Assembly (NCBI GenBank): GCA_964016885.1
Contig: OZ024752.1
Span: 14,012,001-14,076,000, forward strand
Source of the DNA: Eledone cirrhosa
Taxonomy: Eukaryota
Length of the DNA: 64,000 bases
Direction: 5' to 3'
Shown here in pieces: positions 6,911 through 64,000 of the stretch; within the stretch, counting starts at the first letter, position 1, and every line of letters begins with the position of its first letter. The notes beneath the pieces were generated by a model. It worked only from the letters and a program-made list of their open reading frames with translations. It was not told the origin of the DNA and made no database searches. The translations under genes and the position numbers were made by a program.

Positions 6911-7090
6911 ATTTATTCTCGCCGTTTTGTCTAAGATCAAAGTGTAGTATCTGTCCTTGATCTGATACGGTCTCTATATGGGATCATCGATATTAAATTT
7001 GTTTTTTAGAAACAGGTGAAGAGCTAGGAGCTTGCTCCACCTTTACCATGGTTTGGCCTTTTATTACAGTACTTATTTGGTGACATGCTG
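6911..7090 (+). pseudogene. U2: U2 snRNA pseudogene
   Basis: ttctcgccgttttgtctaagatcaaagtgtagtatctgt (branch-point pairing GUAGUA), tctgatacg, Sm-like aatttgtttttt, taggagcttgctcc; a deletion and many substitutions. Confidence 0.85.
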
Positions 7091-7228
7091 ATTCTATGTA
7101 ACTTATATTCATCAAATTGTAACGCTATTTTCTGTTTCGCATTTTTTGTGCTTAACAAGTCACCCATGGGTGAATCTTATATATTGGAGGAATGCGAGAC
7201 TGTGTCAGGGATATGTTTTCTGAACACA

Positions 7229-37895: not shown

Positions 37896-38912
37896 TATAA
37901 TAGAAGAAGTTAATATGCCCGTAGGTACTAAGTACCTCTGGAAATATATAGGTTGTATATGATTTAAGTTTGTTCTATGGTATTAATTTGACAGACCAGA
38001 ACTATAATATTAAGATAAGCAGAACAAGCAAAATTCACCCAATTTTTTAAAATAAATAAAAAAATATAATTTAGATATTTACCTATTCTTTTGGCCCTTA
38101 CCGTTCGGTTTCGCTTTGTAAAACATCAGAAATCCAATGGATTTCCAATGGAAAATCAAAGTTCATCAGAGAAGCATTTTCCTTCCCTAGGGGTAAAGAC
38201 CCAGGAACGATAAAATATATTGTTATCTGCCAGCTAGCACAGATCCAAAAGGCCGAAAAATGACCTGTACGTGAACTACCCGAGGTGAAAGCGGGAAAAG
38301 CATAGACGTGTTGTCTATCTCGTTACTAAAAATAGCAGCTAAATATACACAACAGATTTGTTCTCAACATAACGGAGTATAATAATAGAAGAAGTTAATA
38401 TGCCCGTGGGTACTAAGTACCCCTGGGAATATATAGGTTGTATATGATTTAAGGTTGTTCTATGGTATTAATTTGACATACCAGAACTATATATTTCCAG
38501 GGGTACTTAGTACCCACGGGCATATTAACTTCTATTATTATACTCCGTTATGTTGAGAACAAATCTGTTGTGTATATTTAGCTGCTATTTTTAGTAACGA
38601 GATAGACAACACGTCTATGCTTTTCCCGCTTTCACCTCGGGTAGTTCACGTACAGGTCATTTTTCGGCCTTTTGGATCTGTGCTAGCTGGCAGATAACAA
38701 TATATTTTATCGTTCCTGGGTCTTTAGCCCTAGGAAAGGAAAATGCTTCTCTGATGAGCTTTGATTTTCCATTGGAAATCCATTGGATTTCTGGTGTTTC
38801 ACAAAGCGAAACCGATCGGTAAGGGCCAAAAGAATAGGTAAATATTTAAATTATATTTTTTAATTTATTTTAAAAAATTGGTTGAATTTTGCTTGTTCTG
38901 CTTATCTTAATA
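37896..38912. mobile_element. Retrozyme-like element A: ~485-bp HHR unit in two divergent arms
   Basis: Direct repeat with period 485 (37901 vs 38386), inversion at ~38490, HHRs at 38094-38175(-) and 38745-38826(+), (TA)n flanks. Confidence 0.8.
38745..38826 (+). ncRNA. Type I hammerhead ribozyme
   Basis: gcttct-CTGATGA-gctttg..caaagc-GAAA-ccgatcgg-TA-agggc. Confidence 0.88.
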
Positions 38913-38920
38913 TATATATT

Positions 38921-39020
<100 letters not shown>

Positions 39021-61221: not shown

Positions 61222-61225
<4 letters not shown>

Positions 61226-61835
61226 CAGGTCACCAGTTGGTGCTACTGGTAACATGTATCCCAGTACAATCTGTCTCATGGTCGTGTCATTGGCGACTAA
61301 ACTGGCAACCCCACCAAGGTTTCTTGGTGAGGCGGATGACTTTGGACATCCTGCAGGACTAAAAGCAGAACCTGTCAAAGGGCAAAGGAGCTCGTAAGAG
61401 TCAATGGCTATCCAAAATAACCGGGAGAGATGACCCCTTAACCTTTGTCAAGGCAGAATTCTAGGAGAAGGAAAACTTTTATATAACACCTGCAACCCTG
61501 ATGGTATCCAATGATGTTGACTTGTTCTTCTTTTTGGTAAATATCATCTTGGTTAAGAGAGTGGGACTGGCTTTGTGCAGTGCCTTTGCTCACTATAAAG
61601 CTTCAGGGCACAGGCATTGCTTTATATCTGGAGATCTCTCTACACTTGTCTTCACATGGTACCATGGGCCAAGCACTATGCGTCAAATAATTGTCACAGG
61701 TGTAGTGTTTGTACCAGAGTTTTCAAGTCGCTGGCTGGACTAAAAAGTCACACTCATTCAGCGCATCGGTAGGAGTTCTCCTACATGGATATACAGTAGT
61801 GGCCGTACTCGAAAACGAGTTGGCAGCCAACATAA
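61222..61835 (+). mobile_element. RTE-like element: putative 5' leader joined to 3' end with C2H2 finger
   Basis: [23 protein letters not shown]; 3' stem gtactcgaaaacgagttggcagcc. Confidence 0.65.
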
Positions 61836-61865
61836 ATATATATATAAGTGTATATATATATGTAT

Positions 61866-61928
<63 letters not shown>

Positions 61929-61935
61929 GATAGAT

Positions 61936-61975
<40 letters not shown>

Positions 61976-62015
61976 GTACATGCACATATTTATATATATA
62001 TATGCATATATATAT

Positions 62016-62046
<31 letters not shown>

Positions 62047-62223
62047 CATGCACATATTTATATATACATATACATATATATATATATACATGTATATATT
62101 TATATATACATGTATATATATGTGTATATATATATATATATATACACATATATATACATGGATATATATATATATACATGTATATATATATATATATACA
62201 CATATATATACATGTATATATAT

Positions 62224-62278
<55 letters not shown>

Positions 62279-62293
62279 CACATATATATGTAT

Positions 62294-62358
<65 letters not shown>

Positions 62359-62404
62359 CACATATATATGTATATATAAATGTATATATATACATATGTA
62401 TATA

Positions 62405-63649
62405 TAGAATATAATATGTTGAGAAGGTAACACACCAGAGAGAGATATATAGTGCGTTATCAATAATACAGGGAAAAAACCCACCAGTGTATGGAATCTA
62501 TAACCTATGAAAGGCAGACTATAGACACGATAATTAAAAATATAAATTAAAGCGTAAATAAATACCTCTATAACTATATAACACACGTACAAATCCAGAG
62601 ATATGTTTCGCCAGAAAATTTGTTGAAAGAAATGTTAGTCTCGGCTCATCAGCGTGTGTAAGGCTATACATTTCAGACAACACTAAGAGAATTTTACAAT
62701 TGACTGTCCAGCTACACGTGGGAGAGAGAATTCACAGCGTGTTTAAGGGCAGTGAACCAGTGGCCTCTGAGAGACGAACTGCTAGAAAGGGCAGCCCAAA
62801 GCCACTCAGAGAAGAGTGCTCAACCAAACAGAGAGGGAAAAGGCTGTTGTTAGGAGCGAAATATCACGATAAATTAACGGAGGCATAGGCCGTCGTTATT
62901 CCCTGTAAATAATGTGCTCAAAGGGGAAGAGATCCTGAGCCCTTTAGAATATAATATGTTGAGAAGGTAACACACCAGAGAGAGATATATAGTGCGTTAT
63001 CAATAATACAGGGAAAAAACCACCAGTGTATGGAATCTATAACCTATGAAAGGCAGACTATAGACACGATAATTAAAAATATAAATTAAAGCGTTAATTT
63101 ATCGTGATATTTCGCTCCTAACAACAGCCTTTCCTATCTCTGTTTGGTTGAGCACTCTTCTCTGAGTGGCTTTGGGCTGCCCTTTCTAGCAGTTCGTCTC
63201 TCAGAGGCCACTGGTTCACTGCCCTTAAACACGCTGTGACTTCTCTCTCCCACGTGTAGCTGGACAGTCAATTGTAAAATTCTCTTAGTGTTGTCTGAAA
63301 TGTATAGCCTTACACACGCTGATGAACCGAGACTAACATTTCTTTCAACAAATTTTCTGGCGAAACATATCTCTGGATTTGTACGTGTGTTATATAGTTA
63401 TAGAGGTATTTATTTACGCTTTAATTTATATTTTTAATTATCGTGTCTATAGTCTGCCTTTCATAGGTTATAGATTCCATACACTGGTGGTTTTTTCCCT
63501 GTATTATTGATAACGCACTATATATCTCTCTCTGGTGTGTTACCTTCTGAACATATTATATTCTAAAGGGCTCAGGATCTCTTCCCCTTTGAGCACATTA
63601 TTTACAGGGAATAACGACGGCCTATGCCTCCGTTAATTTATCGTGATAT
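62405..63649. mobile_element. Retrozyme-like element C: ~540-bp HHR unit in two divergent arms
   Basis: Period 540 (62405 vs 62945), inversion at ~63092, right arm one unit plus ~19 bp; HHRs at 62581-62659(-) and 63312-63390(+). Confidence 0.85.
62581..62659 (-). ncRNA. Type I hammerhead ribozyme with full stem III
   Basis: acacacg-CTGATGA-gcc..ggc-GAAA-catatc(tctg)gatttg-TA-cgtgtgt. Confidence 0.88.
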
Positions 63650-63661
63650 GTATATATATAT

Positions 63662-63778
<117 letters not shown>

Positions 63779-63822
63779 TGTATATACATGTATATATATA
63801 CATGTATATATATATATATATA

Positions 63823-64000
63823 TGGTGGCTGCCAACTCGTTTTCGAGTACGGCCACTACTTTATATCCATGTAGGAGAACCCCTACCGATGCGCTGAACG
63901 AATGTGACTTTTTAGTCCAGCCAGCGACTTGAAAACTCTGGTACAAAGGCTACACTTGTGACCATTATTGACACATAGTGCTGGGCCCATGGTACCATGT
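63823..64000 (-). mobile_element. RTE-like 3' end, copy of 61655-61830
   Basis: Reverse-complement homology. Confidence 0.8.

Follow-up and report, generated by a model that had tools for sequence, protein, structure and literature searches.

The locus at positions 62405-63649 of the window, the whole 64,000-nucleotide stretch of Eledone cirrhosa DNA that we analyzed, is a head-to-head pair of one noncoding repeat unit of 539/540 nucleotides, set between two (TA)n tracts and carrying one predicted hammerhead per unit. We read it as a two-armed copy of a dispersed hammerhead repeat that was probably inserted in trans by the RT/GIY-YIG machinery of a Penelope-like element (PLE), from an RNA longer than the unit and uncut at the ribozyme. 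Non-autonomous mobility of the PLE type is a very likely property of the family as a whole. The class of element is already known, and the locus is an ordinary member of it that adds mechanistic detail. Unit coordinates (U) are window positions minus 63110, as counted on the right arm, with the strand of the hammerhead taken as sense, and the features of the locus are as follows.

61832-62404, no strand: left (TA)n-type target microsatellite
62405-63094, minus strand: left (inverted) arm, 690 nt or 1.28 units, U306-539 followed by U1-455
62405, minus strand: 3' end of the left arm, at fixed site A (U451-455)
62581-62659, minus strand: left copy of the putative type I hammerhead, expected to be cleaved between 62588 and 62587
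63092-63094, no strand: head-to-head 5'-5' junction with CGT microhomology
63092-63649, plus strand: right (direct) arm, 558 nt (539 + 19), U521-539 followed by U1-539
63312-63390, plus strand: right copy of the putative type I hammerhead, expected to be cleaved after 63383 (U273)
63450-63522, plus strand: U340-412, a zone in which the 5' ends of arms cluster throughout the family
63562-63649, plus strand: stretch of 84-88 nt that separates the two fixed 3' ends, termed 'tail' by comparison with the available text of PMC11167929
63649, plus strand: 3' end of the right arm, at fixed site B (U539)
63650-63823, no strand: right (TA)n-type target microsatellite

An earlier note on this DNA had described one 540-nt unit copied beyond full length in both orientations, and its measurements held: the left arm, put at about 1.27 units, comes to 1.28, the right arm is one unit plus 19 bp, with the same 19-mer present at 63092 and 63631, and the arms have exactly CGT in common at their junction. 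They differ by six substitutions and one indel. Separate template RNAs for the two arms were considered and set aside as unsupported, all differences being private except the 1-nt indel, which is also present at three other loci. The note had further concluded that the arms define a closed 540-nt circle; the permuted map on which this was based is correct, but any partial-tandem Penelope-like element also yields a circularly permuted map, so that a closed RNA circle is not established by it. Nor are the outer ends free permutation points, as had been supposed. Both are 3' ends, and both coincide with ends that are fixed across the whole family, so that the 'permutation points' of the window would correspond to two priming sites.

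An exact 20-mer of the hammerhead occurs at 394 sites in the 3.0-Gb genome, a lower bound on the number of units, and its reversed control at none, which argues that the motif is not there by chance; the dispersed copies, this locus included, number several hundred at least. Pooled matches were merged into 77 distinct loci, to which 10 were added later (87), all chosen non-randomly by best score or genome order; two of those sampled (L033 and L034) resemble duplicates of each other. Copies are between 100% and about 72% identical to the window unit, with both the unit and its ends retained in the old subfamilies (72-88% identical). Arms of one locus have alleles in common, lying a median of 0.6% apart compared with 2.9% between loci, and tandem units inside one locus are a median of 1.0% apart. 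Distant relatives of the unit were also seen at four places (L139, L149-L151); their stem I differs but is compensated, and their stem III has 7 bp.

Most of the 123 outer 3' ends examined lie within U443-456 (site A) or U525-539 (site B), two sites 84-88 nt apart, and 103 of the 123 adjoin AT-rich dinucleotide runs, as opposed to 10 of 31 outer 5' ends. The end sequences have ATAT in common with the target. Among the 77 loci, 46 are two-armed with a 3' end on both outer sides, and none has two outer 5' ends. In 37 of these 46 loci one end lies at site A and the other at site B, while pairs of two A or two B ends do not occur (p 7e-12 if the ends were independent); the remaining nine have at least one end outside both sites. 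Either arm can be the longer one in the A+B loci (17 vs 20), and the loci found later, five two-armed and one with two pairs, which are counted outside the 46, are all A+B. Site A itself is contained in a predicted domain closed by an inverted repeat (63497-63503 and 63603-63609), and several junctions of the family join near both halves of this repeat.

The palindrome could in principle have arisen by fold-back duplication of local DNA or as an assembly artefact, given that an outer inverted repeat (61223-61830 and 63826-64432) encloses the locus. However, the outer copies, 95% identical to each other, come from an abundant family of fixed length, the inner arms begin at different unit positions (U306 and U521), and they end at sites common to dozens of unrelated loci. 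Such an origin is largely refuted, and we give it almost no credence. The enclosing repeat is a 607-bp element in two inverted copies, the second of which extends past the window (L031:4432), with TG...CA ends and a solo-LTR-like appearance by eye.

A second alternative is that a coding PLE has the unit as its pLTR and gave rise to the loci as 5'-truncated insertions, which would account for a layout equal to that of coding PLEs in a genome with more than 10,000 GIY-YIG candidate places. Against this, U539 continues straight into U1 in every arm that is long enough, through up to 4.4 units, and never into an ORF; none of the 87 loci checked is joined to PLE coding sequence, PLE matches being present in the fetched flanks of five, the nearest 213 nt off and across (TA)n; and subfamilies only 72-88% identical keep the unit together with its ends. 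We regard the pLTR reading as very improbable. The earlier note had set its own proposal against the finding of other copies with fixed linear ends joined to a coding element: the fixed 3' ends were indeed found, the coding attachment was not, in line with the note's view of the copies as free of an attached coding element. The longest ATG frame in the unit encodes 45 aa. A 104-aa antisense stop-to-stop frame was rejected as a gene, as it contains no long ATG frame, and a tblastn search with one PLE protein matched the unit too weakly (E 0.049) to be accepted.

A search for the partner among 51 of the more than 10,000 GIY-YIG candidates (30 top-ranking, 20 with long frames and the PLE next to the window) revealed no pLTR similar to the unit, and one of the 51 contains only a separate small insertion of the unit. 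No partner could thus be named, and it is the insertion footprint that points to PLE mobilization in trans. Taken together, the PLE-like tail and head-to-head layout, with neither a coding link nor a partner found, suggest a non-LTR retrozyme, with a PLE as its likely mobilizer in trans. The neighboring PLE (L031:4432-8520), about 0.4 kb past the window, is a frameshifted, Neptune-like coding element in head-to-head arrangement, with RT, DKG, a CxxxxCxxC linker and GIY-YIG, and with two 3' ends about 40 nt apart; a scan of its 3' region gave no hammerhead of standard order.

Both hammerhead copies of the locus have the 7-bp stem I and the GUA site that the earlier note reported, together with CUGAUGA and GAAAC, a stem II loop of about 30 nt and a stem III that in the window's subfamily has one U.U mismatch. 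Of 96 copies, 91 retain an intact core. In an alignment of 19 sequences from several subfamilies, in which the stem III register is off in four young rows, 92.6% of cells are paired and five pairs show change on both sides, whereas slid controls reach a pairing of at most 48%; the figures come from related sequences, hence no probability is attached to them. The assignment of a type I hammerhead to the locus is supported by this covariation.

At the 10.1/11.1 position, the base of stem II, hammerheads favor G-C. The 96 copies have A-U in 56 cases, A.C in 28 and G-C in 12. Those with A.C are the 28 copies closest to the window and constitute the youngest subfamily, which the right copy of the locus (A10.1.C11.1) matches; G-C is found in 11 old copies and, as the twelfth, in the window's left arm, where a private G at 62645 makes a G10.1-C11.1 pair. 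The right copy had been described as carrying a G-to-A change, a polarity that is in fact reversed. A is the family norm, present at 10.1 (63326 in the window) in 100 of the 100 20-mer matches listed, and G is private to the left arm: the right-arm 17-mer recurs in 62 of 84 other loci and the left-arm 17-mer in none of them. A literature search on the effect of changes at 10.1/11.1 returned nothing usable.

Folding of the 540-nt circle, which the earlier note had recommended, gave a more favorable fold than that of shuffled sequences (z -4.0), with stems II and III not formed, at a pair probability of at most 0.05. The local fold z-scores are -0.6 and -0.9, with both stems absent from the computed folds, and an Rfam search at gathering and E-value thresholds returned no hammerhead match. 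The low pair probability in the circular ensemble and the Rfam result count against easy folding of the monomer; monomeric self-cleavage of the unit would be plausible.

The 5' ends bear on the nature of the template. As many as 107 unit passes run intact across the predicted cut site, and of 127 5' ends one lies at U272-276, the cut site itself (expected 1.2), with no enrichment within 10 nt of it (8 of 127, expected 4.9, p 0.12), which argues that the cut linear monomer is not the template. Uncut RNA and a ligated circle both fit this read-through. About 100 nt downstream of the cut site, at U355-410, 43 of the 127 5' ends accumulate (expected 13), and the somewhat wider zone U340-412 is a candidate for the 5' end of the RNA or for a stall of the RT. 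If the template is a finite RNA of some 1.3 units that begins in the zone, first and second passes should differ, whereas a circle with a stall site should give the same rate on each lap. Arms stopped in the zone on 25 of 37 second passes compared with 18 of 103 first passes, an asymmetry inflated by the selection of loci; in the least biased set the values were 7 of 10 and 7 of 31 (p 0.017), and shorter arms stopped there on the first pass in 16 of 36 cases (p 0.06 against 25 of 37). Considering that the zone was drawn after the data had been seen, this lends moderate support to a linear RNA.

The longest insertions place demands of their own on the template. Ten of 145 arms exceed 760 nt, the longest measuring 2356 nt (4.4 units), and the window locus crosses the zone twice and would span at least 2.43 units of one linear RNA, so that its template would have been multimeric or circular, unless two like RNAs were used. 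The ten long arms, and the window locus if it came from one RNA, require a multimer or a circle; for the insertions of the family, a circle is allowed but not required.

The same element and the same PLE machinery could therefore also be combined with a 540-nt circular RNA as template, produced by hammerhead cleavage of multimers and host ligation, with the arms as rolling-circle cDNAs. A circle would readily account for arms of several units, for the likeness of tandem units and the alleles common to the arms of one locus, and a single circle explains the window locus simply. The better fold of the unit as a circle than of shuffles and the retention of the hammerhead fold down to about 72% identity, with its five two-sided changes, also speak for it, as do the circles demonstrated for other animal retrozymes in the available text of PMC7229834, and read-through of the cut site suits a ligated circle equally well. 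Yet stops in the zone prevail on the second pass, the antisense strand of the circle folds nearly as well as the sense strand (z -3.7), the youngest 28 of the 96 hammerhead copies carry A.C at 10.1/11.1, and two tandem hammerheads, needed to release a monomer, are present in few loci. We consider this rolling-circle scenario rather unlikely. As to the main template in general, uncut linear RNA is the probable one, and a circle in that role is conceivable but doubtful. Contigs from three sequencing runs cover the unit in short pieces and are uninformative on circles or expression.

If uncut RNA was indeed inserted in trans, the insertion may be pictured as follows. Transcription of the unit would yield an RNA of about 1.3 units, at times of several units, with its 5' end near U340-412, and a PLE dimer would cut both strands of (TA)n. 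Reverse transcription would start at U451-455 on one target end and at U539 on the other, both cDNAs would run through the hammerhead site, and their ends would join, often at a few common bases. The 84-88-nt tail would then mark a pair of internal start sites for reverse transcription. According to the available text of PMC11167929, a purified PLE in vitro cuts AT-rich DNA, extends both strands and starts reverse transcription from two sites inside the RNA, which delimit the tail; its templates are mostly RNAs left unprocessed by its hammerhead. The paired ends of the coding PLE beside the window and of an unrelated 481-nt hammerhead family agree with such a mechanism. Two observations count against a PLE mechanism: the tail has double the length published for PLEs (30-40 nt), and the ends have ATAT in common with the target, while the PLE in vitro primed without homology.

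In the available portions of PMC8557442 and PMC3846280, a PLE insertion is described as a partial tandem that carries an inverted 5' copy and has a tail of 30-40 bp on just one of its ends. The window family resembles the EN+ PLEs (Penelope/Poseidon, Neptune) in all of these respects except tail length (84-88 nt vs 30-40), and also in its AT-rich targets and in a hammerhead that lies upstream of the 3' ends and is read through; it differs in having a full stem III, where EN+ PLEs have a minimal palindromic hammerhead, and in lacking the RT/EN ORF that they carry. With the Chlamys non-autonomous PLEs such as MRC1, as presented in the accessible part of PMC8557442, it has in common noncoding parasitism of PLEs, pLTR-like partial tandems and multicopy head-to-tail insertions. 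Animal non-LTR retrozymes, in the available text of PMC7229834 (Cervera and de la Pena 2020) and bioRxiv 10.64898/2026.07.22.740005 (Li, Clavereau and Pollet 2026), likewise have a noncoding unit with one type I hammerhead each, head-to-tail copies and PLEs in the same genome, and the GC content of the unit (40%) is a further likeness. Its length lies within the 51-972 bp range of the latter source and above the 170-400 nt of the RNAs in the former. The window family differs from them in consisting mostly of dispersed arms of 1-1.3 units instead of long arrays; neither head-to-head arms nor two fixed ends are described in the available text of the two sources. On all features testable here, the element appears to fit the animal non-LTR retrozymes while working like a non-autonomous PLE (cf. 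MRC1).

Earlier proposals that PLEs mobilize animal retrozymes relied on co-occurrence and on similarity of pLTRs; in the present family the PLE footprint is visible in the insertions themselves. A literature search, with most subscription journals outside its reach, returned no count of paired fixed ends in retrozyme insertions. The strict pairing of one A with one B end constrains how both target ends are primed. We put forward tentatively, as a possibility we hold to be short of probable, that the family spreads without ribozyme cutting or a circle, by way of a terminally redundant, uncut 1.3-unit RNA and a PLE dimer whose halves always start at different fixed sites, one on each target end, with a youngest subfamily that has expanded while its stem II is mismatched. 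If this is true, the model of a circular intermediate would be replaced for such elements, and the 540-nt unit would offer a minimal substrate for the unsolved integration step of PLEs. The natural series of G-C, A-U and A.C hammerheads makes it possible to test directly whether spread depends on cleavage.

Further hammerhead motifs and one snRNA match were noted elsewhere in the window.

12491, 29436, 31429, 32599, 32927, 46285, 51264, 51722 and 53113: minimal PLE-type hammerheads, nine motifs with a short palindromic stem III, in at least three repeat families
37900-38921: family of 481-nt hammerhead units (hammerhead 38747-38825; L137-L166), unrelated to the 540-nt unit
6911-7096, plus strand: match to U2 snRNA at 84.9 bits, several of its pairs broken, a gene or pseudogene

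The 481-nt family is two-armed too; 103 nt separate its fixed ends, its stem III is palindromic, and its arrays reach seven units.
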